From: an uncultured Bacilli bacterium
GTDB lineage: Bacteria; Bacillota_I; Bacilli_A; RF39; UBA660
Length of the DNA: 64,000 nucleotides
NCBI GenBank assembly: GCA_947589535.1
Contig: CANQAS010000001.1
Location: forward strand, 12,101 to 76,100
Direction: 5' to 3'
Shown: one piece after another, positions 745-37,145 of the stretch
How the letters are laid out: every line of letters starts with the position of its first letter
How positions within the stretch are numbered: the first letter of the stretch is position 1
Made by a program: the position numbers and the translations under genes
The notes under the pieces: model-generated
What the model was told of the DNA's origin: nothing
Databases searched by the model: none
The model's input: only the letters and a program-made list of their open reading frames with translations

Positions 745-2015
745 TATTTTCTATAATCCCTTTCATACTTTCTAGCTGATAAGCTACTTTCAATTTGGTT
801 ATAAGTTTCAAGTGCTACACCAACTACTATTAATAAACCTGTTCCTCCAACTGTTACTGAAGTAGGTAAACTACTTAAGTTTGAAACTAATATTGGAAGT
901 CCAGCTATGATAACCAAGAATATTGCTCCCAAGAATGTTGTTCTTGATAATACCTTGCTAATATAATTTTTAGTTTCATTACCAGGCCTTACACCAGGTA
1001 TATATCCACCTTGCTTATTTATATTTTCAGCAACTTCTTTAGGCTTTAATCCAGATGCCATGAACGTATATAAATAAGTAAATAATATAATAAGTAATAT
1101 ATATAATATAAAACCTGTTACCGTATTATAGTTAATATAACTATTTACGAATAATGAGAACGAATCTTTTTTTAAGAATGTTGCAATAAGTGATGGTATA
1201 GATACCAAACTTGATGCAAATATAACTGGCATAACTCCTGCAGAATTTAATCTAAATGGAATATATGTTTGTTTTGCTCCGTACGCTGTTGAAGTTCTAT
1301 TCGAATATTGAATAGGTACTCTTCTCTCAGATTTTTCAATAAATACAACTCCCACTACTATTGCTATATACACAAGTAAGAATAATATAAACTTAGTAAC
1401 GCCTAGTGCTACTTCTTGAGTAGTACCAGATACTACAAATGAACTAAACGCATCAACCATCATGCTTGGTGTACTAATTAATATACCAGCCATAATCAAG
1501 ATTGATACACCGTTTCCAACACCTTTTCTAGTTATTTGATCTCCTAACCATAACAAGAAACATGTTCCAGCTGTTAAAATTAAAGTTACTCTTAGATATT
1601 CCATCGACGTTGCTGTATCACCTAAAAATGAGAATGACATAACAAGTCCTTGAAGGAATGCTAATGCAATACCTAAATACCTAGTAATTTTATTTAATTT
1701 AGTTCTACCGGAATAACCTTCTTTTGAAAGATTAGAGAAATATGGAATTATATCCATTTGTAATAACTGAACGATTATTGAAGCACTAATGTATGGTGTA
1801 ACTCCTAATGCGAAGATTGAGAAGTTTTTTAAAGACCCACCACCCATTACGTTAAGTAGTTCCAAAAATCCTAAATCTTGTGTGATATTTTCAGTACCAG
1901 GAACGCGAACTGCTGTTCCTAATTTATAGATAAATAATATAAGCAGTGTGAATAGAATTTTATTTTTAATATCCTTGTTTCTGGCTGAAAAGATTTGTTT
2001 AATGGTTTTAAACAT
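744..2015 (-). CDS. secY: preprotein translocase subunit SecY
   Basis: 423-aa polytopic protein with typical SecY sequence (GGGSLKNFSIFALGVTPYISASII), in the operon position after rplO. Confidence 0.97.
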   Translation of the reverse strand: MFKTIKQIFSARNKDIKNKILFTLLILFIYKLGTAVRVPGTENITQDLGFLELLNVMGGGSLKNFSIFALGVTPYISASIIVQLLQMDIIPYFSNLSKEGYSGRTKLNKITRYLGIALAFLQGLVMSFSFLGDTATSMEYLRVTLILTAGTCFLLWLGDQITRKGVGNGVSILIMAGILISTPSMMVDAFSSFVVSGTTQEVALGVTKFILFLLVYIAIVVGVVFIEKSERRVPIQYSNRTSTAYGAKQTYIPFRLNSAGVMPVIFASSLVSIPSLIATFLKKDSFSLFVNSYINYNTVTGFILYILLIILFTYLYTFMASGLKPKEVAENINKQGGYIPGVRPGNETKNYISKVLSRTTFLGAIFLVIIAGLPILVSNLSSLPTSVTVGGTGLLIVVGVALETYNQIESSLSARKYERDYRK

Positions 2016-2016
2016 C

Positions 2017-2460
2017 TTAAATCACCTCAGCTTTTCCACCCTTAGCTTCTATTTTTTCTTTTGCTATATCAGAGAACTTATGAGCTCTAACAATTAATTT
2101 CTTTTCTAACTCTCCATTACCAAGTACTTTTATACCAGATAATTGTTTTTTTATTATTCCCATTTCGAATAATAATTCTGGAGTTACTTCTGTACCTTCT
2201 TCAAATCTATTTAAATCTGATACATTAATAACTGCATATACCTTTTTAAACATTGCATTTGAAAATCCACGTTTTGGAAGTCTTCTGTATAGAGGTAGTT
2301 GTCCACCTTCAAATCCAACTCTTACTCCTCCACCTGATCTTGACTTTTGTCCGTTTTCTCCTCTACCACTTGTTTTTCCAGTACCGCTACTAGAACCACG
2401 ACCTAATCTTTTAATATCCTTTTTAGAACCTTCGTTATATTTTAATTCATTTAACTTCAT
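2017..2460 (-). CDS. rplO: 50S ribosomal protein L15
   Basis: Gly/Arg-rich N-terminus ([22 protein letters not shown]) and spc-operon order. Its ATG overlaps the rpsE stop (TAATG). Confidence 0.97.
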
Positions 2461-2969
2461 TATCCTAAAATCTCCTCTACAGATTTTCCTCTTAATTCAG
2501 CAATATGTTCAACTGACTTTTGTGATTTTAGAGCTTCTATAGTTGCTCTTGCGGTATTTAATTTTGTGTTAGATCCAAGTGATTTTGAAATTATATCTTT
2601 TACTCCAGCTAGTTCTAGAACCATACGAACTGAACCACCGGCGATGATACCAGTACCAGCTTTTGCAGGTTTAATCAAAACCTTTGCAGCACCTGCTGTT
2701 CCGATAGCATCGTGAGAAACCGTTCTGTTTTCAACTAAATCAATTTTAATTATTCTGTTAGTTGCATCTTGAACAGCTTTTTTGATTGCATCTTGAACTT
2801 CGTTTGCTTTACCAGTTCCAAGGCCAACCTTACCTTTACCATCTCCAACTGCTACTGTTGCAGCAAAACGAAGACGACGTCCACCTTTGGTAACTTTAGT
2901 AACACGATTTACAGAAATAACAGTTTCGTTATATTCTTTTTCACGTGGTTTTCTTTCTCTTTTTTCCAT
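2460..2969 (-). CDS. rpsE: 30S ribosomal protein S5
   Basis: [24 protein letters not shown] motif and operon order. Confidence 0.97.
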
Positions 2970-2982
2970 CGTTACCCTCCTT

Positions 2983-3345
2983 TTAGAATTCTAATCCATT
3001 TTCACGTGCAGCATCAGCTAATGCTTGAACGCGTCCATGATATAAGTATCCGCCTCTATCGAATACTACTTTAGTAATTTTTGCTTTCTTTGCTTTCTTT
3101 GCAATTGCAGCTCCTACAAGCTTACTTGCTTCTACGTTACCACCGTTTTTAATATTTAAATCTTTATCTAATGAAGATGCACTTACTAATGTTACACCTT
3201 TTACATCGTCAATTATTTGAACGCTAATATTTTTTAAAGATCTATATACGCACATTCTTGGTAACTCACTAGTTCCGCTAACTTTATTTCTTATTCTAGC
3301 GTGTCTAGCCATACGAGCTTCATTACGTGATGTTTTTTTTATCAT
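2983..3345 (-). CDS. rplR: 50S ribosomal protein L18
   Basis: [12 protein letters not shown]...RMCVYRS pattern and operon order. Confidence 0.97.
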
Positions 3346-3366
3346 TGTAATAATCTCCCTTTCCTA

Positions 3367-3906
3367 TTATTTAGAAGCTTTCTTACCTTCTTTACGGCGA
3401 ACATATTCACCTTTGTAACGAATACCTTTACCTTTATATGGTTCTGGTTTTCTAACTTCTCTTATTTCTGCAGCAAACTTTCCTACTGCTTCTTTATCAA
3501 TACCTTTAACTACTATTTCAGTAGTACTAACCGCTTCGACAGTAAGTCCTTCTGGTACTGTTAATTCTACTTTATGTGAATAACCGGCATTAACTTCTAA
3601 TATTTTTCCTTTTGGGTTAAATCTATAACCAACACCAATTATTTCAAGTCCTTTTTCATAACCTTCTGATACACCAATTATCATGTTTTTTATTAATGCA
3701 TTAGTTGTACCATGCATTTGTTTCGTTTTTTTAATGTCACTATTTCTTGTAACCTTAACAATGTTTTCTTCAATCTTAACATCAATATTTGCATTTAATG
3801 TTAATGATAATTCACCTTTAGGCCCTTTTACAGTGACAATACCGTTTTCATTTGTAACAGTAACACCAGATGGTACTTTTAACTCTCTGTTTCCTATACG
3901 ACTCAT
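3367..3906 (-). CDS. rplF: 50S ribosomal protein L6
   Basis: MSRIGNRELKVPSGVTV N-terminus and operon order. Confidence 0.97.
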   Translation of the reverse strand: MSRIGNRELKVPSGVTVTNENGIVTVKGPKGELSLTLNANIDVKIEENIVKVTRNSDIKKTKQMHGTTNALIKNMIIGVSEGYEKGLEIIGVGYRFNPKGKILEVNAGYSHKVELTVPEGLTVEAVSTTEIVVKGIDKEAVGKFAAEIREVRKPEPYKGKGIRYKGEYVRRKEGKKASK

Positions 3907-3924
3907 CTTTAGTCCCTCCTTGAA

Positions 3925-4323
3925 TTACCATATGTATGCTAAAACTTCTCCACCAAGGTTTTCTTTCTTAGCTTCTTTACCAGTCATAATACCTTTTGAT
4001 GTTGAAATGATAGATATTCCAAGACCATTTAATACAGTAGGAATTTCTTCTGCTTTAGCATATACACGTAAGCCTGGTTTTGAAATTCTCTTTAAACCAG
4101 AAATTACTCTTTCTTTGTTTTTTCCGTACTTTAAAGTGATAATTATATTATCTTGTACTTCAACTTTTTCTGTCTTGTAATCAGTTATATAACCTTCATC
4201 CTTTAAAATTTTAACGATTTCCATCTTAACTTTTGATGAAGGCACTACAACTTCATTGTAACGCATTTGATTAGCATTACGCATACGCGTAAGTAAATCT
4301 GCGATTGGATCTGTTACTGACAT
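3925..4323 (-). CDS. rpsH: 30S ribosomal protein S8
   Basis: [13 protein letters not shown] motif and operon order. Confidence 0.97.
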
Positions 4324-4350
4324 ATAAATCCTCCTTCTCGTATCTTTATT

Positions 4351-4536
4351 CTACCAACTCGATTTTCTAACACCAGGTATTTCACCTTTATATGCTAGTT
4401 CTCTAAAGCAAATACGGCAGATACCAAATTTTTTCATTACTGAATGTGGACGACCGCATCTGTTGCAACGAGTATATTCTTGTACTTTATATTTTTTTGG
4501 TCTTTTGTTTTTTACGACCATACTTTTCTTTGCCAT
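4351..4536 (-). CDS. rpsZ: 30S ribosomal protein S14, zinc-binding type Z (61 aa)
   Basis: Short form with CNRCGRP...CRICFRE cysteine pairs, located between rplE and rpsH. Confidence 0.95.
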
Positions 4537-4554
4537 TTATTTCCTCCCATTTGC

Positions 4555-5094
4555 TTACTTTTTAAAAGGTAAATTAAAACCTTTTAATAAGTCTAATGCT
4601 TCTTCGTTAGTTTTTGCAGTTGTAACAAAAACAATGTCCATTCCACGTACTTTTACAACTTCGTCATAAACGATTTCTGGGAATATAGTTTGTTCTTTAA
4701 TTCCTAGAGTATAGTTTCCTCTACCATCAAATGCTTTGTTTGATATACCTCTAAAATCACGTACACGTGGTAACACAATCTTAACTAACTTTTCAAGGAA
4801 AGTATACATAACTTCTCCACGAAGTGTAACCTTACATCCAATTGCTTGACCTTCTCTTAATTTGAAACCAGCGATTGAGTGTTTTGCTCGTGTAATAACT
4901 GGTTGTTGACCTGTTATTTTTTCTAAATCAGATACTGCTGCATCCAATAATTTACTATTAGTTGTAGCATCCCCAACTCCCATATTAACTACGATCTTTT
5001 CTAACTTTGGTACAGCCATGACAGTAGTATAATTGTATTTTTTTGTTAATTCAGGAATTATTTCCTTAGTATATTGTTCTTTTAAACTGTTCAT
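4555..5094 (-). CDS. rplE: 50S ribosomal protein L5
   Basis: [20 protein letters not shown]-terminus and operon order. Confidence 0.97.
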
Positions 5095-5107
5095 AGTTAC
5101 CTCCTTA

Positions 5108-5410
5108 TTAATCTAAGCTAGATCCTGACTTGATAGAAATTCTAACTTTTTTACCGTCTTTGTCTTGCTTTTTTGCTATTCTGGTAGGTTTTTTAGTTTT
5201 AGGATCAATAATCATAACGTTTGATACGTGAATAGCTGCTTCCTTATCTATAATTCCACCTTGATCTTGTCCGTTTGGCTTAACATGTTTTTTAACCATA
5301 TTAATACCTTCAACAAAAACCTTTTCACCTTTCTTAGCGATGATTTTTCCTTCTTTACCTTTGTCCTTACCAGCAATAACAATTACTTTATCTCCAACTT
5401 TTAAATTCAT
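5108..5410 (-). CDS. rplX: 50S ribosomal protein L24
   Basis: KOW motif [18 protein letters not shown] and operon order. Confidence 0.97.
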
Positions 5411-5432
5411 GTTTTTTCCTCCTTACAAGGCC

Positions 5433-5801
5433 TTATAACACTTCTTTTGCTAGCGATACAATTTTCATGAAATCTTTATCACGTAATTCGCGTGCTACTG
5501 GACCTAAAACTCTTGTTCCAACTGGTGTCTTATCTTCTTTAATAATAACGCAAGCATTATCATCAAACTTGATATAAGAACCATCATCTCTACGCATTCC
5601 AAACTTACTTCTAACGATAACCGCTTTTACGACTTTACCGCTTGATATATTACCATTTGGAGTTGCTTTTTTAACTGTTCCAACTACGATATCACCGATG
5701 TTTCCGGTTTTTCTTTTACTACCACCAAGAACTCTAATAACCATTAGTTCACGAGCACCAGAATTATCAGCAACTTTTAAACGACTTTGTTGTTGAATCA
5801 T
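5433..5801 (-). CDS. rplN: 50S ribosomal protein L14
   Basis: [19 protein letters not shown]-terminus. Confidence 0.98.
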
Positions 5802-5832
5802 AAGTGTTTCCTCCTTCTTATTTGTAAAGTGC

Positions 5833-6090
5833 CTATAAAATTACGGCTTCTTCAACTATTTCTACTAAATTAAATCTCTTAGTTTTTGATAATGGTTTAG
5901 TTTCTACAACCCTAACTATATCTCCAACTTTAGCTTGGTTATTTTCATCGTGTGCTGTATATTTCTTAGAATATTTAACACGTTTACCATATTTAGGATC
6001 TTTTTTGTAAGTTTCTACTAAAATTGTTATTGTTTTATTGTTTTTTGAGCTTACAACCTTACCTAGTATTTCATGTCTTTTATTTTCCAT
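5833..6090 (-). CDS. rpsQ: 30S ribosomal protein S17
   Basis: 85 aa with [18 protein letters not shown], and operon order. Confidence 0.96.
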
Positions 6091-6101
6091 AGTAAACCTC
6101 C

Positions 6102-6293
6102 CTAAGCTTCCTTACGTTCAGCTAGAATAGTTTTCATTCTAGCAACATCTTTTCTTAATTCATGTATTCTTGAAGGTTTTTCTAAATTTCCGGTAGCTTG
6201 TTGCATTCTAAGCTTGAATATTTCATCTTTAGCTTCAATTATTTTAGCATTTATTTGTTCTGTGGTAAGTTCTCTTATTTCCTTAACCTTCAT
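6102..6293 (-). CDS. rpmC: 50S ribosomal protein L29
   Basis: [14 protein letters not shown] moved the start to the internal ATG at 6293, which has a GGTGGTGA SD inside the rplP 3' end. The ORF-track start at 6308 is probably too long. Confidence 0.93.
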
Positions 6294-6714
6294 TTTGTTC
6301 ACCACCATTTTCTTTAGTTACAAATTTACATTTGATTGGTAACTTGTGCATAGCTAGTCTTAATGCTTCACGAGCTACTTCTTCAGTTACTCCTGAAACC
6401 TCAAACATAATTTTTCCTTCTTTTACTACTGCAACCCAGCTTTCAGGATTACCTTTACCTTTACCTTGACGAGTTTCTAAAGGTTTTTTAGTTAATGAAA
6501 GGTGTGGAAATATATTGATATATACTTTACCACCACGTTTCATGTAACGTGTCATAGCAATACGAGCGGCTTCGATTTGACGAGCAGTAATCCAAGCACC
6601 TTCCTTTGCCATTAAACCATATTCACCAAAATGTAATTCAATGTTGCCTTTTGCTTTACCTTCATGATAAATTCTGTGAGGTTTACGATATTTAGTTCTT
6701 TTTGGCATTAACAT
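6283..6714 (-). CDS. rplP: 50S ribosomal protein L16
   Basis: [15 protein letters not shown]-terminus. The start is trimmed from 6756 to 6714 and overlaps the rpsC 3' end, as is usual. Confidence 0.95.
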
Positions 6715-9827: not shown

Positions 9828-10571
9828 TTATTCTGCAGTTTCTTCTTGTGATGTTTTTGTTTCATCTGTAGCTGTTTCTTTAGTTTCTTCTGCTACTTCA
9901 GCAGCATATGATACTAATTCAACTTTTTCTTTTTTTACAGTTGACTTTTTAACAGCTGTTTTGATGATAACTAAAGACTTTTTAGGGCCTGGAACATTAC
10001 CTTTAATTAAGATTACATTTTCCTCTGGTATAACAGCTACAACTTCTAAATTTTGCATTGTTACACTAACATGTCCCATGTGTCCAGGTAATTTTTTACC
10101 TTTAAATACACGCATTGGTCTCATTGTTCCTAGAGAACCAACACCTCTATGATATTGAGATCCGTGTCCCATTGGACCTCTAGATTGATGGTAACGTTTA
10201 ATTACGCCTTGGTATCCTTTACCCTTCGATACACCGCTTACATCAACCATTTCGCCTTCTTCAAAAACTTCTACAGTAAGTTCTTGACCAAGGACGTATT
10301 TGCTAACATCTACTCCGCGGATCTCTTTTAAGAAGCGCTTAGGAGCGGTATTAGTTTTTTTCATATGACCTTGTTCTGCTTTGTTACTTAGTTTTTCTTT
10401 TTTAGTTTCAAAGCCTAATTGAATAGCATCATATCCGTCTGTTTCTGTTGTTTTAATTTGAGTAACAACATTAGGCTCTACTTCAACTACAGTAACTGGA
10501 ATTAGCTTACCATCTTTAGCAAAAACTTGAGTCATTCCTAGTTTACGACCTAAGATTCCTTTTCTTTCCAT
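9828..10571 (-). CDS. rplC: 50S ribosomal protein L3, with an extra acidic C-terminal tail
   Basis: [14 protein letters not shown]-terminus. At 247 aa it is roughly 35-40 aa longer than the L3 proteins I remember (about 210 aa). Confidence 0.96.
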
Positions 10572-17925: not shown

Positions 17926-20703
17926 TTAGCCAACTGGTTCATCGGAAATAGTTACTTTTTTATCTATTAGTTTTCCTTTTTCATTATAATATAATTCTAA
18001 GGTAAATTTGCAAGGATCAGTTGGGGCCTCAGCAATTGCGACTATTTTGTCATTTTTATTATGTACATAATACCAATTTGTACGATATACATTTGGATTT
18101 ATTTCTTTTACCTTTCCAAATACATAATCTACATGATTTAAATTAACTAAATCATTATAATATTTTATCTTCGTACCTGGATTATTCCTTAAGTATTTAT
18201 CTAAATCTGTTTTAGGAGTTGTATTTAATAATGTATCTATGATAGAGTATAAATATTCATTTTCTTTCCAATCTCCAATGTTTTTTGCCATATATAAATC
18301 TATTAACTCATCTACCATATGATATAAAAGATATGCTTTTTCTGTATTATCTTCTACTTTTTCATAATCAATTTTGTTTAAATCTGATAAAGCGTTAATC
18401 AAAGAATACGCCTTTTCATAATTATAATCAACCTTTTCTTTTAACATTTTATATAGAACATTTACTTTTGATGGTGAATATTGTAGCTCTACAAAATCAT
18501 CTTCTAATATATATTGTAATAAAATATATGCACGCATGTCTGTTTCATATGTCTTATAAGGTTCATTTTTATAAACAACAGTAGTAAAATATTCAGCACC
18601 AGCTTCCTCAAGAAGTCTATTATCATTATCAAAATACTCTACCTCACAAGATGATTGTTCCTTAATATCCATATCAATCACTTCATTATAGTTTTTTATT
18701 TTTCCCTTGCAATCATAAATATTAATATTTTCACCGGTTTTAGCAGAATATGATAGCATATGCATCATTTCATGTTCTATTGCATAATCATAATGATCAT
18801 TTAATATGTATATACTTGTTGTATCATCAGAATAATTACCAACGCCCCAGGGGATTATTTCGCTTGGCCTTTTATCAAATGCTTTAACCTCTAGCTTATC
18901 TATTTTATTTAGTAGTTTTTCTATTTTATTATATTTATTAAAATCTACTATAGCTTCAAACATACCTAACAGATGCTTTCTATCACTATTGGATAGTTTA
19001 TTATTGTTTGTTACATGATAAGCTACTTTTTTAAATAATTCCTCATTTTTATTAATTAATTCTTTTTTTAATTGTAAATTATATTTACTAATTATCTCAT
19101 CAGTTTTAATTACACTATAATCGGCCGTACCTTTTTCTTTTTCTTCATTAATGTTATTATCTTTTTTTAAAAAATCTTTATATTCTTTTAAATTTCCATA
19201 TTTGATTGATTTAGAATATGTTTTTCCATTATATTCCAAAATAATTATCGAATTCGTAATGGTTATCTTATCATATTTTTCATCTAATATCTTATTACCA
19301 TTTTTATCATACAATCCATATTTATTATTTGAATTTGTTACTATAATAAAATTATCTAGATTATATAAGACGTTAGAATATACCCCATCAATTATTTTAC
19401 CACTTTCATTATAAACATAGTTTACTTCATGCGTAGAAGAACAATTATATAAATCTTTATCTAAATGACTTAAATATTTACATTCTTTTATTTTTCTATT
19501 TCCTTTTTCATCTAAAACATAATAAGAATTTTCACTAGAATAATCAAAATCTCCGTACAAATTTGGATATATTCCTTCCATTTCAGAACCTTGCTTTTCA
19601 AATATTTTTTTGCCGTTATTGTATACGGTAAAAACATTTTTAGAATCTTTAACTATTATGCTGTTGTTATTTCTTACTATTTGATTACAACCATCTTTTG
19701 TTTTTTTATTGCCTTTGCTATCATATAAATCCCCATATGACATAAGCCAATCTTCAGAAGCACATTTGGTATTTGGAACTAACAATAACCCTTTTCCAAC
19801 TATATCATAATTATCATATTTATTATTAAATTGGGTTATGATTTTTTCATTCTCGTCTTTTAAAATAACTTTATTATTATCAGTTACAGCAACATAATTA
19901 TCGTTAATTGTTGCATAAGGATATTGTTTAGAAAATTTTTTGCTCTTAACAAAATATATTTTTCTTCCTTCTCCTGCTTTCATCAATATAAAATTATCAT
20001 TTAAATAATATCTTGTATCACCTTCAATATAATTTTCTATCAAATCAACATCTTTTAGTATTAATTCTAATTTTTCATTATAAACATCTTCTTTTTCCCC
20101 CACTGATGCTATAAAATAGTTATCTTGACAAATAATACTATCATAATTTTCTAATAAAATTTTACCATTTTTATCTATTAGTAAATCTTTATCATTTTTT
20201 CTTATAACAAAATGATCACTTGCGCAAGAATAATCACTAGCAGTGGCGTCTTTGATAACAACATTTAAATCTTTATCAAAAAAAACATCTTCATTCTCAT
20301 TAAAGGCTGTAATTAAATTCCCATATTTATTAAAACCATAGTAATTATAGTCAGTCTTTAAATTTCCTTGTGAATCCATAAGAGCGTAATTATTATTGTC
20401 ATTACTTACTACATAATATCCATTAATGTAATCACTAATTTTAACATCATTATGATCAATTGTTTCAGTTAGAATCGGATATTTATCATCTTCTTCTTTA
20501 ACTAAGATTTTAACATTATCTTTTAAAATAAATTTAAACAATACAATCAAAATAATTATAATAATCAATAAAACTATTGAAATTATTAAAATATTCTTTT
20601 TAGTGAAGAATCTTTTTTTCCTGGAATCATTCAAAACTTTTTCTTCCAATTTTACAGTCTCATTTAAATTTTTATTAACTTTTTCTTTTCTTTTAAAAAA
20701 CAT
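17926..20703 (-). CDS. membrane-anchored protein with WG-type beta-repeats and a C-terminal HExxH (zincin-like) domain
   Basis: One N-terminal TM helix (ILIISIVLLIIIIILIVLF). Many repeats of the KYGLYDKNGNKILDEKYDKI type. HEMMH motif in AIEHEMMHMLSY. Confidence 0.6.
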   Translation of the reverse strand: MFFKRKEKVNKNLNETVKLEEKVLNDSRKKRFFTKKNILIISIVLLIIIIILIVLFKFILKDNVKILVKEEDDKYPILTETIDHNDVKISDYINGYYVVSNDNNNYALMDSQGNLKTDYNYYGFNKYGNLITAFNENEDVFFDKDLNVVIKDATASDYSCASDHFVIRKNDKDLLIDKNGKILLENYDSIICQDNYFIASVGEKEDVYNEKLELILKDVDLIENYIEGDTRYYLNDNFILMKAGEGRKIYFVKSKKFSKQYPYATINDNYVAVTDNNKVILKDENEKIITQFNNKYDNYDIVGKGLLLVPNTKCASEDWLMSYGDLYDSKGNKKTKDGCNQIVRNNNSIIVKDSKNVFTVYNNGKKIFEKQGSEMEGIYPNLYGDFDYSSENSYYVLDEKGNRKIKECKYLSHLDKDLYNCSSTHEVNYVYNESGKIIDGVYSNVLYNLDNFIIVTNSNNKYGLYDKNGNKILDEKYDKITITNSIIILEYNGKTYSKSIKYGNLKEYKDFLKKDNNINEEKEKGTADYSVIKTDEIISKYNLQLKKELINKNEELFKKVAYHVTNNNKLSNSDRKHLLGMFEAIVDFNKYNKIEKLLNKIDKLEVKAFDKRPSEIIPWGVGNYSDDTTSIYILNDHYDYAIEHEMMHMLSYSAKTGENINIYDCKGKIKNYNEVIDMDIKEQSSCEVEYFDNDNRLLEEAGAEYFTTVVYKNEPYKTYETDMRAYILLQYILEDDFVELQYSPSKVNVLYKMLKEKVDYNYEKAYSLINALSDLNKIDYEKVEDNTEKAYLLYHMVDELIDLYMAKNIGDWKENEYLYSIIDTLLNTTPKTDLDKYLRNNPGTKIKYYNDLVNLNHVDYVFGKVKEINPNVYRTNWYYVHNKNDKIVAIAEAPTDPCKFTLELYYNEKGKLIDKKVTISDEPVG

Positions 20704-20829
20704 ACTACACGCTCCTACTATTTTTTATTTATCATATCTTTATTATAAAGTGTATCGTATACATTAATAATATCATAATACTACCTCTAGTTGTCAATAA
20801 AATATACTGTGGAAAACAAAAGTTTTACA

Positions 20830-20858
20830 TAAAAAAAATAGGAAATACATTTCCTATT
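20830..20858 (-). terminator. rho-independent terminator after the 431-aa gene
   Basis: Stem ATAGGAAA / TTTCCTAT with loop TACA, followed on the minus strand by T8. It overlaps the TAG stop. Confidence 0.65.
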
Positions 20859-32557: not shown

Positions 32558-32693
32558 ATATCCTCCCATAATTATATTATTTGATTTGTGAGACAAAATT
32601 ATGACAATTAGCACCATATGTATAATTCTGCCCTACATATAAATTATACCATATTTTACCATTATATAATAAAAAAAAACTAAAAAGTCTTTT

Positions 32694-33665
32694 TTATAAT
32701 GTAGCAATATAACTTTCTATTGTACTTATAAATTCTTCCTTAGTTTTTATTTCGTATAATTTTTTCTTTATACTAACACTATTTGGTAGTCCTTTTAAAT
32801 ACCATGCTCCATGGGTTCTCATTTCTAACACTGCTACCTTTTCGGGTTTTATTTCAAGTAAATACTCAAAGTGCTTTAAACATGTTTTTAATTTTTCTAC
32901 TGGCGTTTGATCAGGTATTATAATACCTTTTTCTAAATAAGTAACAATTTGTTTTATTAGGTATGGGTTACCAAGTGTACCTCTACCAATCATAACCGCA
33001 TCACAACCCGTTTCATCAAACATTCTTTTAGCGTCATATATTGTTAATATATCTCCATTACCAATTACAGGAATACTTATATTTTCTTTAATTTCTCTTA
33101 TAATGCTCCAATCTGCTTTGCCTGCGTACCCTTGGCTGCGTGTTCTAGGATGGATAGCTATAGCATCAGCTCCTGCTCTTTCGCAAACTTTAGCTACTTC
33201 TACAGCATTAATAGAATTATTATCCCAACCACTTCTAATTTTAACAGTAACAGGAACATTAACCACTTCCTTAACAGCACTTACTATGTCATAAATTTTA
33301 TCTAAATCCTTTAGAAGTGCTGACCCTGCTTGTGATTTAACAGCAACTTTTGGAACAGGGCATCCCATATTTATATCTATAATATCGGGGTGCATTGTTT
33401 CCTCTATTATCTTAGCGGCCTTGACAAAACTATCTTTATCACTACCAAATATTTGCTGGGTAATAGGTCTTTCTTTTTCTGTCATATAAAGCATCTCTTT
33501 AGTTTTTTCATTATCATAAACAAGTGCTTTATCACTAACCATTTCGGCATATAATAATCCACATCCCATTTCTTTTACTATTCTTCTAAAAGCACTATTA
33601 CAAACTCCTGCCATCGGCGCTAAACAAACGTTGTTTTTAATTTCTACATTTCCTATCTTAAACAT
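32694..33665 (-). CDS. dusB: tRNA-dihydrouridine synthase
   Basis: LAPMAGV, DINMGCP and IGNGDI motifs. The start is trimmed to the ATG at 33665. Confidence 0.9.
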   Translation of the reverse strand: MFKIGNVEIKNNVCLAPMAGVCNSAFRRIVKEMGCGLLYAEMVSDKALVYDNEKTKEMLYMTEKERPITQQIFGSDKDSFVKAAKIIEETMHPDIIDINMGCPVPKVAVKSQAGSALLKDLDKIYDIVSAVKEVVNVPVTVKIRSGWDNNSINAVEVAKVCERAGADAIAIHPRTRSQGYAGKADWSIIREIKENISIPVIGNGDILTIYDAKRMFDETGCDAVMIGRGTLGNPYLIKQIVTYLEKGIIIPDQTPVEKLKTCLKHFEYLLEIKPEKVAVLEMRTHGAWYLKGLPNSVSIKKKLYEIKTKEEFISTIESYIATL

Positions 33666-33690: not shown

Positions 33691-33727
33691 TTATATAATA
33701 AAAAGAAACATTTTTATAGTTTCTTTT
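33691..33727 (-). terminator. rho-independent terminator closing the three-gene cassette
   Basis: 9-bp stem AAAAGAAAC / GTTTCTTTT (33701-33727) with a 9-nt loop, directly after the TAA at 33728. A U-rich tail follows on the minus strand. Confidence 0.6.
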
Positions 33728-33901
33728 TTAATTTCCAATACGTTTAGTTTTAATCTTTGAATAACCTTTAGAATCTTTTTTACAATTTAAATCAGTGAAT
33801 TTTGAATAAGATTTACTATTTTTCTTTTCTTGTTCGTTCGCATATTTAATAATATTTTCTATCTTAGTATTTTGTTGCTTTTTAATACTACTACTTTTCA
33901 T
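33728..33901 (-). CDS. small lysine-rich basic protein (57 aa), unknown function
   Basis: ATG at 33901 preceded by AAAGGAAA. The ORF-track TTG start at 33958 has no SD. It is the third gene of the cassette. Confidence 0.4.
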   Translation of the reverse strand: MKSSSIKKQQNTKIENIIKYANEQEKKNSKSYSKFTDLNCKKDSKGYSKIKTKRIGN

Positions 33902-33987
33902 TATACTAATTTTCCTTTCATGTAATTGATATTGTAACATATTAATAAAATAAATCAACTAAAATACTTAAATATTATTAATTATTT

Positions 33988-34269
33988 TTATTGTTTAGAA
34001 ATCAAATACTCTCCAACCATATTTTTTATCATTTCAAAATATACTAACATCGCTTCTAAATAATCATCTTCGCTTAAATTAGCATTGAATAAGTCTTTTA
34101 TTTCTCTGTTCTGTAAATAGTGTAACTCTATTCCATCTTGATTTGCTAATTCAACAATACTATTACCTAAATTCATCAAAGAGTCGTATAATTCTTTTCT
34201 CTTACCATTCGTATCTAATTTTTTAACTTCGTTCATGTAGTTTTCAAATGCTTGATTTATCTCTTCCAT
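33988..34269 (-). CDS. small acidic, probably all-helical protein (93 aa), unknown function
   Basis: TAGGAGA SD, and only a 10-nt gap after the upstream gene stop, so it is probably co-translated in an operon. Confidence 0.55.
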   Translation of the reverse strand: MEEINQAFENYMNEVKKLDTNGKRKELYDSLMNLGNSIVELANQDGIELHYLQNREIKDLFNANLSEDDYLEAMLVYFEMIKNMVGEYLISKQ

Positions 34270-34279
34270 TATATATCTC

Positions 34280-35788
34280 CTATCTTTTAATCGAGCTATC
34301 TGAAGATAATTTATTTTTTCTCATTTTTTCCTTAGCTTTTTCCAGAAATGATTTTTCTTTATATTCTTGCTTTGCTTGCTCTTTTTCTAACTCTAATCTA
34401 TTTTCTAAATCTTTTAATTTTTGTAATTCATTTTCATGCATTCTTAACGAAGCTTCCGCCTTTTCTAGTTGTTCTTGAGCTGCAACTAAATCTTCTTTTG
34501 AATGACCAACTATTATATCCCTTGTTTTTTCATCATGAATATATTCTTGATGCTCTGGAATTATTTTCCTATCGACAGGCCCATCTCCAGGAGCTCTATT
34601 TGTACTTACTTCAACAACTTTTTCTTCAACATATTTAGTTTTATAAGCCTCTGCCTCTTTAGTATCATGTATAAATTTTAGATGACTTTGGTTTTTTCTT
34701 AAATTTTCTACTTCATCAATTAATCTTTTAACAATTTCTTCTTTATTTTTAATTTGTTGGCGTAAATCATCTATTTTTCCCTGTTTATTAATCTCTTGTT
34801 CTATCTTTTCTACTTCTTTTTTCTTTGGATCAAATGATTTATCATTTATTTTTTCTTCGCATTTCTGAACTTCTTTTTTGTACCTTTCTTCAAGTGCAGG
34901 TAAAGTTTTGGCAAATGAATCAAAATATTTTGATGTATAATTCAAACTTTCAATAATATGTTTTAGTTCTTGGCAATTATATAAATTAAATTTTGCATTT
35001 TGTAATTCAACATATTCCTTTCTAGCTGAAGATAATTTGTTCCTATCTTTTTGACTTTCAGTTTTACGCATTAAATCATCTATTTTTCCTATTTCGGGAA
35101 CAATCCATGGATGAAAATTATCCGTGCCTTTTATCATTTCCATTTGATTTATTTTATTACTATTTTGGGCATTTACTTTTTTAGCATTTTTTTCCAAATA
35201 AAATGAAGAGAAAGTATGATGCGCCTGATTTATAATTTCACTTTCATGTCCTTTTCTAATACCAAAATCAGATAAAAGAGAGTCAACATATGTGTAGTAA
35301 TTTGAATCTCCAGGTTTACCTTTTAAAATATATTTTCCTTTTTCTATTTCGTTACCATATTCATCATATGATGGTAATTCACCAGAAATTCTATAATGAC
35401 ATTTATAATTTTCTCCATATTTTTCAAGTATCCTAATAACTTCTGTTAATTGAGCTTTAGCATCAGAAAAAACTTTTTTTCTAATTCTATCTAAATCAAA
35501 GTTTCTACTTTCTGATAAATTATTTACTAAATTATTTATTTTATTAGAAAAATTTTCATATTCAGACAGAAGATTATTAGCATAATCAATAAGATGTTCT
35601 GCCTTTTTCATTTCTTCATCCATTTTACTATAATTTTGTAAATCCCTATCAGACATAGATGATGTTTTTATTTTACTAACTCGCTTTTGTATTATAAATT
35701 TAATCAATGCTAGTTGATTATCTGTTGTGTAATATAAACTATTATCATATACATCAGCTGATTTTACTGATGAAATCTTTATTTTCAT
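34280..35788 (-). CDS. 502-aa coiled-coil-rich cytoplasmic protein, unknown function
   Basis: AGGTGA SD 6 nt before the ATG. No signal peptide, TM helix or P-loop. Long K/E-rich heptad-like stretches flank a central globular region (residues about 125-260). Confidence 0.6.
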   Translation of the reverse strand: MKIKISSVKSADVYDNSLYYTTDNQLALIKFIIQKRVSKIKTSSMSDRDLQNYSKMDEEMKKAEHLIDYANNLLSEYENFSNKINNLVNNLSESRNFDLDRIRKKVFSDAKAQLTEVIRILEKYGENYKCHYRISGELPSYDEYGNEIEKGKYILKGKPGDSNYYTYVDSLLSDFGIRKGHESEIINQAHHTFSSFYLEKNAKKVNAQNSNKINQMEMIKGTDNFHPWIVPEIGKIDDLMRKTESQKDRNKLSSARKEYVELQNAKFNLYNCQELKHIIESLNYTSKYFDSFAKTLPALEERYKKEVQKCEEKINDKSFDPKKKEVEKIEQEINKQGKIDDLRQQIKNKEEIVKRLIDEVENLRKNQSHLKFIHDTKEAEAYKTKYVEEKVVEVSTNRAPGDGPVDRKIIPEHQEYIHDEKTRDIIVGHSKEDLVAAQEQLEKAEASLRMHENELQKLKDLENRLELEKEQAKQEYKEKSFLEKAKEKMRKNKLSSDSSIKR

Positions 35789-35821
35789 ATTACGTCACCT
35801 GCACTTTCCTATGTTAATAAT

Positions 35822-35848
35822 AACATAACACCCCCCCCCGGATGTCAA
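35822..35848 (-). promoter_or_regulatory. sigma-A type promoter with a G9 tract in the spacer
   Basis: The minus strand reads TTGACA (35848-35843) tccGGGGGGGGGtgt TATGTT (35827-35822). TG is in the extended -10 position. The spacer is 15 nt. Confidence 0.5.
35831..35839. repeat. C9/G9 homopolymeric tract
   Basis: Nine consecutive C on the plus strand. The next-longest G/C runs I found in the window are 5 nt. Confidence 0.95.
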
Positions 35849-35883
35849 GCGAATCAAACTGTGGAAAAGAAAAAATGTAAACC

Positions 35884-35910
35884 ATAAAAAAAGATAGAAA
35901 CTTCTATCTT
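35884..35910 (-). terminator. rho-independent terminator after the femAB-family gene
   Basis: 8-bp stem AAGATAGA / TCTATCTT with a 4-nt loop, overlapping the TAG stop. T7 follows on the minus strand. Confidence 0.65.
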
Positions 35911-37145
35911 CTTGCTCTTATAAATTTTAAAATTTTCATACCTAAATTAAATAATGCGTAATAAAACTTATTTATAACTAAATCGTATTCTCCAACTAAT
36001 TCTAATACGTTGGGATTAAATTTTGACTTAAACGTTGATAAATGATCTTCTAAAGAACCATCTACCCCACCTAAATCACAATAATCACAACCTCTTTCTA
36101 AGCAATAACATAATCTATAAAACATAAGACCATTAGTTATTTTTAAAGATGGTAATATTTTTGTATTAGTACCAGCATATAGGAATGATGCAGTTTTAAT
36201 TCCACTTTCGCACGAAGGCATCATAACGATTGTCGCTCCAGCAAGTGGTTTTGGACCAAATTCCTTTTTTATATTTTCAGCTTCCATTATTTGTTTTTTG
36301 CAAAATTCTTTTTTATTTTCATGTTCTTTCATATCTTTCTTTAAAAACGAAATATATTTATCTATGTCCACTCTCGCAAAAAACAAAACAGCATTGTCCG
36401 GAAAACATTCCATTACTTTTTTAAAATAATTTTCACTTCGAAGTGCAATGTGTTGCCTTTCTTCCGTACAACGAAGAACACTTACTAAATCTCTAACGTC
36501 CTTTGGATCAGTTGAAAAGCTAAATTCCACACCACGTTCTTCTTGATAAGAACCAATATAATTTCTAGTATTTTTAGGAAAACTTCTTCTTAATTCTTCT
36601 TTATCCAAAGCATTTCCATTAATATCCTTTAATGAAATAACCATGGTGTATCTTGGCTGTATATATGCGTTAACTTCCTTTTTAAATCCCCCATGAATAA
36701 AACCTAAACTCTTTAAATTAGATGTTATTTCTTCAGCTCCCTTAGTGAAACTTTTTCTTATTTCAATACCCTTATTTTTCTTAATGTTTTGAATATTATC
36801 CTCATTAAAGCATATAAATGGATCTATTTTAATGTCTATTGCACCATTTTTTTTAGCATATTTTTTTAATTCTAATATAAACATTTCAAGTAAATTCTTA
36901 TTCATATAATCAATTACAAAACCTCTTGGAATATAAAATAATTTTTTACCTAAGAACAAGTTCCTTTTTAATATCATTGCGGCGCATACTATCTTATCTT
37001 TATCATACATACCAACTAAATCATGTTCCCAAGCAGTTTTAACATCTGCCCAACTTGACGTTTGCATAAAAGATGTTGACGGAAAATTTTTTACAAATGA
37101 ATCATATTCTGCTTTATTAATACCAGATTTGAATTCATATCTCAT
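35904..37145 (-). CDS. FemAB/MurM-family peptidoglycan interpeptide-bridge aminoacyltransferase
   Basis: 413 aa. The N-terminus FMQTSSWADVK...LFYIPRGF is typical of FemAB-family proteins. Confidence 0.7.
   Translation of the reverse strand: MRYEFKSGINKAEYDSFVKNFPSTSFMQTSSWADVKTAWEHDLVGMYDKDKIVCAAMILKRNLFLGKKLFYIPRGFVIDYMNKNLLEMFILELKKYAKKNGAIDIKIDPFICFNEDNIQNIKKNKGIEIRKSFTKGAEEITSNLKSLGFIHGGFKKEVNAYIQPRYTMVISLKDINGNALDKEELRRSFPKNTRNYIGSYQEERGVEFSFSTDPKDVRDLVSVLRCTEERQHIALRSENYFKKVMECFPDNAVLFFARVDIDKYISFLKKDMKEHENKKEFCKKQIMEAENIKKEFGPKPLAGATIVMMPSCESGIKTASFLYAGTNTKILPSLKITNGLMFYRLCYCLERGCDYCDLGGVDGSLEDHLSTFKSKFNPNVLELVGEYDLVINKFYYALFNLGMKILKFIRARR

Follow-up and report, generated by a model that had tools for sequence, protein, structure and literature searches.

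Can a run of nine guanines inside a bacterial promoter act as a heritable switch for the genes that follow it? The question is raised by a stretch of 64,000 nucleotides (nt) from an uncultured Bacilli bacterium (contig CANQAS010000001.1; the whole stretch is called the window here), where a G9 homopolymer on the minus strand lies downstream of a TTGACA hexamer and ahead of a gene for a protein of 502 residues. The original prediction, made from these letters, saw in it a candidate phase-variable switch, and the core of that idea stands: the tract does lie between a -35-like TTGACA and a -10, its length varies, and homologous promoters keep G7 to G10. The -10 that was named, and the spacer arithmetic built on it, do not stand. 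We observe that the tract differs among near-identical genomes and that its position, together with a surrounding cassette of about 90 bp, is conserved across species and loci. With a probability of roughly two in three, we explain the G tract as a slipped-strand contingency switch within this conserved, sigma-A-type promoter cassette.

A length-variable G tract before the 502-residue gene

The minus strand of the promoter region is gcTTGACAtccGGGGGGGGGtgtTATGTTattattaacataggaaagtgcAGGTGAcgtaatATG, within which 35848 to 35822 reads TTGACA-tcc-G9-tgt-TATGTT. As first described, the run separates TTGACA from TATGTT by a spacer of 15 nt, TG precedes TATGTT, and an AGGTGA Shine-Dalgarno sequence and the ATG of the 502-residue gene follow downstream. 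It is the only run of G or C longer than 5 nt in the 64 kb, the next longest being three C5 runs (there is no G5), exactly as had been claimed. The chance expectation for C runs of at least 9 nt in the window is 0.008 with independent bases and 0.016 with a first-order Markov model, and for G runs of that length 0.0001 to 0.0005. The tract is therefore as improbable as proposed in the sense that the expectation is far below one, although C makes up 17.5% of the plus strand and not the 14% assumed (G+C in the window is 27-33%), so that the order is 10^-2 rather than 10^-3. The 582 kb made up of the window and related low-GC loci contain 34 G/C runs of at least 7 nt, and 32 of them sit in the spacer of the cassette.

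Length variation was read from nine sequences of one species, namely the window and eight related contigs, which are all such contigs in the collection and came from the protein cluster of the 502-residue protein (six members at 99% identity). The tract is G8 in L005, L006 and L007, G9 in the window, L001, L002 and L008, and G10 in L003 and L004. Outside it, the 130 intergenic bases hold one single-nucleotide polymorphism (SNP) among the nine sequences, and a 7.5-kb alignment has about 30 SNP columns, in which the only length differences are the G tract itself, a 7-bp deletion in dus (L003) and a T9/T8 run (L001). A/T runs of at least 7 nt served as controls, and 10 of 11 are invariant. G8 occurs on at least two SNP backgrounds: L007 has four SNPs in common with the G10 contigs, while L005 and L006 have others in common with the G9 contigs. 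Tract length thus varies independently of the haplotype around it, the pattern expected of recurrent slippage. Comparison across related genomes, proposed as a check with the original prediction, has accordingly turned up three tract lengths in near-identical assemblies, the polymorphism looked for in a simple-repeat phase-variable promoter.

Some further differences were seen among these contigs. The T9 run of the dus terminator (window 32681-32689), which is T8 in L001, adjoins the TATATAAT promoter of a TM2-domain gene. The dus deletion, present in one assembly (L003/L074), removes CATGGAG (window 32807-32813) and shortens the product to 287 residues. Logan contig L004 starts 2 nt before TTGACA, with a C/T SNP adjacent, and Logan contig L079 starts 20 nt before the tract; these contig breaks may be due to branching of the graph where the sequence is heterogeneous, or to the G run being poorly covered.

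The conserved cassette and its probable -10 element

Two routes led to further copies of the cassette. A genome scan with the FemAB protein encoded upstream of the tract gave 29 loci from uncultured gut Bacilli (L009-L037), including Clostridium sp. CAG:594, Candidatus Aphodocola and metagenome-assembled genomes from mouse, rabbit, chicken and human gut. As the closest FemAB match is 88% identical, the species of the window is absent from the representative genomes. At the same position or a few kb away, L012, L015, L019 and L024 carry the cassette with G8-G9; L032 carries it too, and L009, L011 and L013 have the same architecture with interrupted G-rich spacers. Ascertainment of these copies is therefore independent of the second route, a scan of metagenome contigs with the pattern TTCCACA-N10-18-TTGAC-N12-24-TATTATNAACAT, in which no G was specified. 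It returned 34 contigs. G7-G10 directly follows TTGAC(N) in 25 of the 26 contigs with 23-38% GC, the remaining one, L039, having only an interrupted G-rich tract; the other eight contigs, whose GC content is 39-50%, lack a tract and are regarded as chance matches. Several of the contigs that carry the cassette derive from the same metagenome and have similar coverage.

Within orthologous groups the tract again differs in length: {G10, G9, G10, G9}, {G9, G9, G10}, {G9, G10, G8} and {G8, G9, G9, G9}. The cassette is also multi-copy, as in families of the vlp/vlhA type, with two copies each in the window, L041, L045 and L046. In L041 (2281-2361 and 3143-3219) tandem paralogous genes for anchored proteins have a G9 cassette each. 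Tracts that are interrupted before intact genes occur at the second cassette of the window, in L011 and at L045:2632. A phage origin was considered and dropped, there being no cassette copy in the viral contig collection. In L024, a C7 run (10499-10505) lies 30 nt upstream of the G9 tract, in place of the usual TTKACA box.

The members share an order of elements over about 90 bp: TTKACA boxes, TTTTCCACA, an A-rich stretch, TTGAC(N), G7-10, a linker of 6-8 nt that ends in TG and one base, TATTAT and nAACAT. In non-redundant modules the TTKACA boxes lie at about -43/-44 and -33 from the start of TTGAC, and TTTTCCACA at about -22. The TTCCACA box was seen in L009-L031 independently of any search pattern. 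Of 21 aligned modules, 20, the window copy among them, have both TATTAT and the upstream TG (the exception, L009, has TATAAT and no TG), and the element is therefore an extended -10. From this alignment we infer that the conserved -10 of the window is TGT-TATTAT (35825-35817), while TATGTT may be a species-specific alternative or a second -10.

Members fall into two classes by the position of TTGAC. In class A, to which most belong, 15-17 nt (mode 16) separate TTGACN from TATTAT, and alleles of 15, 16 and 17 nt occur. Class B comprises the window copy, L078, L011 and the second window cassette, in which TTGACA is shifted upstream by 3-4 nt; in alignment A3, 4 nt are deleted before TTGACA and 4 nt inserted after it. 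The result is a long spacer, which in the window copy measures 19, 20 and 21 nt to TATTAT at G8, G9 and G10, compared with 14-16 nt to the non-conserved TATGTT. Two alternative -35 hexamers 17 nt from TATTAT (ACATCC and ACAGCT) were set aside because they bear no resemblance to a -35. A SigB-type reading (GTTTAA-N12-15-GGGTAT) was likewise discarded, since by inspection there is no GTTTAA-like element at the required distance. Rfam gave no match at E <= 1 for 35500-36100.

Judged by sequence and homology, the repeat in the window lies between a -35-like hexamer and a -10, with a terminator before it and the Shine-Dalgarno sequence and ATG about 30 nt after it (Table 1). The terminator of femAB sets the cassette apart from upstream transcription. 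These features suggest that the cassette is a promoter, and the G tract appears to lie within the sole plausible promoter of a unit of two or three genes. Dependence of the third gene on it is uncertain because a promoter-like site of its own is present.

Table 1. Location of the promoter elements, genes and terminators discussed in the text, as positions in the window
Feature	Position	Strand	Basis or remark
TTGACA, -35-like hexamer, last of the phased TTnACA boxes	35843..35848	-	TTGAC kept in every family member
G9 homopolymer (C9 on the plus strand), length-variable element	35831..35839	-	run census; G8/G9/G10 in related assemblies
TATGTT, -10 candidate of the original prediction	35822..35827	-	15 nt from TTGACA at G9; variable linker, not conserved
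TGT-TATTAT, family-conserved extended -10	35817..35825	-	TG 35825-35824, TATTAT 35822-35817; also in L078 and L079
TAACAT, conserved nAACAT element directly 3' of the -10	35811..35816	-	alignment of members
TTCCACA box	35860..35866	-	start 43/44/45 nt from -10 start at G8/G9/G10
TTTACA box, 33 nt upstream of TTGACA start	35876..35881	-	TTKACA recurrence in non-redundant modules
femAB terminator, hairpin AGATAGAA..TTCTATCT, then T run	35886..35913	-	12-nt arms, 92% complementary
FemAB-family gene, upstream	35904-37145		Pfam, E 1e-72
Shine-Dalgarno AGGTGA, 6 nt before ATG at 35788	35795..35800	-	sequence
First gene, 502 residues, ATG 35788	34280..35788	-	open reading frame; predicted all helical/coiled coil
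Second gene, 93 residues, starts 10 nt past the stop of the first	33988..34269	-	kept at the locus in related species
Third gene, 57 residues, lysine-rich	33728..33901	-	own TTGATT-16-TGtTACAAT site in preceding 86-nt gap
Terminator closing the unit, AAAAGAAAC..GTTTCTTTT	33700..33727	-	followed by dus with its own TATATAAT promoter
Second window cassette	20764..20840	-	R1 model 24.7 bits, E ~1e-6, second-best match in the window
925-residue protein behind the second cassette	17926-20703	-	N-terminal membrane anchor, HEMMH motif

A short palindrome spans the -10 of the window (ATGTTA-TTAT-TAACAT, 35811-35827), and another that of L038:10862-10885 (ACATGTTA-TTAT-AAACATGT); the conserved nAACAT mirrors the (C)ATGnT that precedes the -10. 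Such a palindrome may serve as an operator, or may simply result from the TGn motif together with the start region. Over the whole window, the minus strand holds nearly all open reading frames (ORFs) of at least 180 residues, and the GC skew stays negative, which places the window within a single replichore. Around 2000-6700, long ORFs are lacking and the GC content is higher; rRNA genes probably lie there.

Slippage, phasing or a neutral tract

In the explanation we prefer, slipped-strand mispairing at replication would add or remove one G per event. With each gain or loss, the DNA that separates the extended -10 from the upstream elements (the phased TTnACA/TTCCACA boxes and TTGACA) would change in length and in helical phase, and cell lineages would come to differ, heritably and reversibly, in their transcription of the 502- and 93-residue genes and possibly of the 57-residue gene. 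Tract length would thereby set expression, as it does in Neisseria porA/opc, Mycoplasma vlp and Bordetella fim. Several points weigh against this explanation. The spacer of 19-21 nt in the window exceeds the 16-18 nt at which sigma-70-type promoters work well, and a simple -35/-10 spacing switch therefore does not fit the window copy. An extended -10 can function without a -35, so the tract could be neutral. Dependence of transcription on tract length is itself argued from analogy. Moreover, all assemblies of the species stem from a single run series at about 6x coverage, the contigs from ENA and Logan probably share reads, leaving some five or six independent observations, and one A/T run (T9) varies as well. 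The long spacer may be accommodated if the phase between boxes and -10 is what counts, if TATGTT is used, or if the extended -10 works alone beside a neutral tract.

Sequencing or assembly error at a homopolymer in low-coverage Illumina assemblies is a very improbable source of the length differences. Low coverage and the T9 run that differs in one assembly would be in keeping with it, but two assemblers agree on apparently identical samples (L001/L002, L003/L004 and L005/L006), the other ten long A/T runs are stable, and differences of one or two G recur in orthologous groups, four or five of them, that are unrelated and stem from different studies. Use of TATGTT is the geometry of the original prediction, TTGACA-(14/15/16 nt)-TGt-TATGTT, in which G8 and G9 would be poor and G10 and G11 would turn the operon on as the spacer nears 17 nt. 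The sequence permits it: TATGTT has the critical A2 and T6 with TG before it, and its spacers are near the 15-17 nt of class A. We nevertheless think it unlikely, as TATGTT falls within the non-conserved linker, where L078 (G10-CGAATGG-TATTAT) has CGAATG and no hexamer of this kind; L011 and the second window cassette have only TATTAT, at 19 nt; and the conserved TGnTATTAT-nAACAT block, found in the window as in the family at large, follows 5 nt downstream. Measured to TATTAT, the spacer of the window is too long rather than two short, and gain of G, which had been expected to improve the promoter, leads away from 17 nt. An invertible promoter, or a terminator or attenuator hairpin that includes the tract, is hardly credible. 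A 12-13-nt inverted repeat (TCCACAATTTTTC / GAAAAATTGTGGA) does flank the cassette in L012 (10831-10915) and L038 (10827-10925), where it overlaps the GTG start, and is confined to this subgroup; the window has no flanking inverted repeat, 19 of 21 modules are no better in this respect than shuffled sequence, and all copies face their own gene. On these grounds we rejected inversion. A consensus scan had marked 35847-35826 as a terminator-like hairpin, and the predicted folding energy of the region is -12.7 kcal/mol (z-score -2.3); the fold is modest, other members do not conserve the hairpin, and the proper terminator of femAB already lies 40 nt upstream; this candidate, too, was rejected.

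A stronger competitor, which we regard as possible though not probable, is that the tract sets the register between a box-bound activator and RNA polymerase, as BvgA and a poly-C tract do at Bordetella fim. The spacing of the boxes in non-redundant modules is about 11 bp, and despite the displacement of TTGACA by 3-4 nt in class B, the distance from TTCCACA to the -10 stays at 42-45 nt (44 in L078, 43 in L011, 42 in the second window cassette; for the window see Table 1), against a family mode of 43 and range of 39-45. The compensating 4-nt deletion and 4-nt insertion suggest selection on this distance. Against phasing, the activator is putative, and the boxes may be conserved by shared ancestry of the cassette alone; the TTTACA box of the window moves with TTGACA, no single reading frame fits all boxes, and TTCCACA belonged to the pattern used in the metagenome search. 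It is doubtful, finally, that the tract is a mutational hot spot of no regulatory effect, the extended -10 sufficing and the G run being kept as a protein-binding or DNA-stiffness element. Extended -10 promoters are able to dispense with a -35, and the copies with interrupted tracts (second window cassette, L011, L045:2632) do persist before intact genes. However, a pure G7-G10 is found at the same place in at least 20 non-orthologous cassettes in genomes of 23-31% GC, where long G runs otherwise hardly exist; an element of fixed function would be expected to become interrupted, which halts slippage; and the cargo is enriched for surface proteins. Recurrent slippage that alters promoter geometry thus remains our preferred account of the tract, with the part played by spacing and by phase stated as above.

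Genes behind the cassettes and comparison with known systems

The 502-, 93- and 57-residue proteins have no match in Pfam, NCBIfam, PADLOC or PHROGs and contain no hydrophobic segments; the largest is without a transmembrane segment or signal peptide. A word-index search with the 502-residue protein found its own cluster only, and exhaustive phmmer found three true relatives among 1.8 billion representative proteins, which points to a very small family. Its AlphaFold model (predicted local distance difference test score, pLDDT, 71) consists of long helices and has no match in the PDB at E <= 0.001. The protein is predicted to be a soluble coiled coil, and our functional call stops there. The pairing of cassette and gene is kept in three species. 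In L078, a 498-residue orthologue (35% identity) directly follows femAB behind TTGACA-GCT-G10-CGAATGG-TATTAT-CAACATAGG; in L079, a 481-residue orthologue (identity of both is about 35%) has TTGACC-G8-TTACATGC-TATTAT. L013 has a broken gene and a tract decayed to G5, and L031 lacks the gene and has a decayed cassette. More generally, the stretch between femAB and dus (window 33700-35900; downstream of femAB in L009-L037) is a site of variable cargo among species, which show direct adjacency of the two genes, unrelated genes, the 93- and 57-residue genes only or, in L013, the broken 502-residue gene.

The first ORFs downstream of the cassettes mostly encode surface or membrane proteins. Some of these have a basic N-terminus, a single transmembrane helix and a GYALFSQxLxIxG-like motif, and others combine a signal peptide with a C-terminal anchor; a leucine-rich repeat (LRR) protein, a Zn-ribbon/RDD membrane protein and a DUF2628 membrane protein also occur. 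In L040 the cassette is followed by a 93-residue ORF with no family match, a WXG100 protein (TIGR03930, E 2.7e-13) and a similar ORF of 97 residues, an order that suggests control of the beginning of a WXG100 (type VII secretion) locus by the cassette. The window G9 copy, driving soluble proteins, is the exception. The unusual target stressed by the original prediction is therefore real at this locus, with its three proteins free of hydrophobic segments, and does not extend to most other cassettes, which drive anchored or secreted proteins. The second cassette of the window, recovered with R1, a sequence-only model of the cassette, reads TTGACA-ACTAGAGGTAGTATTATGA-TATTAT with a 19-nt spacer and an interrupted G tract (CTAGAGGTAG). 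The gene for the 925-residue protein behind it has as neighbours pgk and a gene for a 431-residue protein with an N-terminal hydrophobic segment.

It is tempting to speculate, and we do so tentatively, that a low-GC clade of gut Bacilli, kin of Clostridium sp. CAG:594 and Candidatus Aphodocola, uses one portable cassette of about 90 bp to control, throughout the genome, a set of genes that switch independently of one another. The poly-G tract would set the register between boxes and extended -10 by way of a putative activator, rather than the -35/-10 spacing, and the set would take in surface proteins, a type VII locus and the coiled-coil operon. The copies with displaced TTGACA offer a natural test of -35/-10 spacing against activator phasing. 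The cassette is recognisable and can be searched for in metagenomes, giving a handle for listing the variable surface repertoire of uncultivated organisms, and switching within a host is measurable from read data. The coiled-coil operon, for its part, has retained its putative poly-G control through deep divergence.

Phase variation by promoter homopolymers is known mainly from pathogens, namely Neisseria, Haemophilus, Bordetella and Mycoplasma, and porA, opc, vlp, fim and hif make it an established class of mechanism. The direct comparative evidence gathered here points to this strategy in a lineage of uncultured commensals from the gut of animals and humans. In the literature we found no description of such a switch in this lineage, nor of this cassette. 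In Neisseria meningitidis, porA and opc have poly-G or poly-C tracts of about 9-13 nt between -35 and -10, and their products are surface proteins. The cassette likewise has a G/C homopolymer in the promoter spacer, where slippage by single nucleotides changes the geometry. Unlike porA and opc, which are individual loci of a Gram-negative pathogen, it stands as a unit of about 90 bp before many unrelated genes in several species of low-GC Bacilli; it has an extended -10, and the TTGACA spacer in the window is 19-21 nt.

In Mycoplasma hyorhinis, each vlp gene has poly-A in its promoter spacer, and tandem paralogues switch independently. Here, too, the genomes are low in GC and within the Bacilli/Mollicutes radiation, several genes each have their own promoter and homopolymer, and the two adjacent paralogues of L041, each with a G9 promoter, resemble the vlp arrangement. 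The tract is poly-G rather than poly-A, however, and in place of a single lipoprotein family the cargo is heterogeneous, with several types of anchored protein, the start of a WXG100 locus, Zn-ribbon membrane proteins and a soluble coiled coil. In Bordetella pertussis fim2, fim3 and fimX, poly-C lies between the BvgA sites and the -10. As with fim, a promoter is common to several genes, and the phased boxes and conserved distance from TTCCACA to the -10 resemble an activator spacing set by a homopolymer; unlike in fim, the activator of the cassette is only putative, the boxes are perhaps inherited, and organisms and sigma-factor context differ.

Two further systems were compared. The vlhA genes of Mycoplasma gallisepticum are reported to have GAA repeats upstream of a conserved multi-copy promoter (PMC6258824). 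Both are multi-copy families of conserved promoters marked by an embedded simple repeat, although that of vlhA, in the same account, is a trinucleotide upstream of the core promoter, and that of the cassette a homopolymer inside the spacer (PMC6258824). Campylobacter jejuni is reported to have several contingency tracts of G8-G11 per genome, mostly coding, which act by frameshift (PMC3025981). In both cases these are the only long G runs of a low-GC genome, and in C. jejuni, according to this source, their length varies within and between populations; unlike those coding tracts, the ones described here are in promoter spacers (PMC3025981). Taken together, these comparisons most likely place the tract of the window among slippage-driven expression switches of a known type, in a lineage that had no earlier description of one. 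The cassette goes beyond the textbook cases in that it is portable, standing before unrelated genes in different species, and in that its geometry gives a hint of activator phasing.

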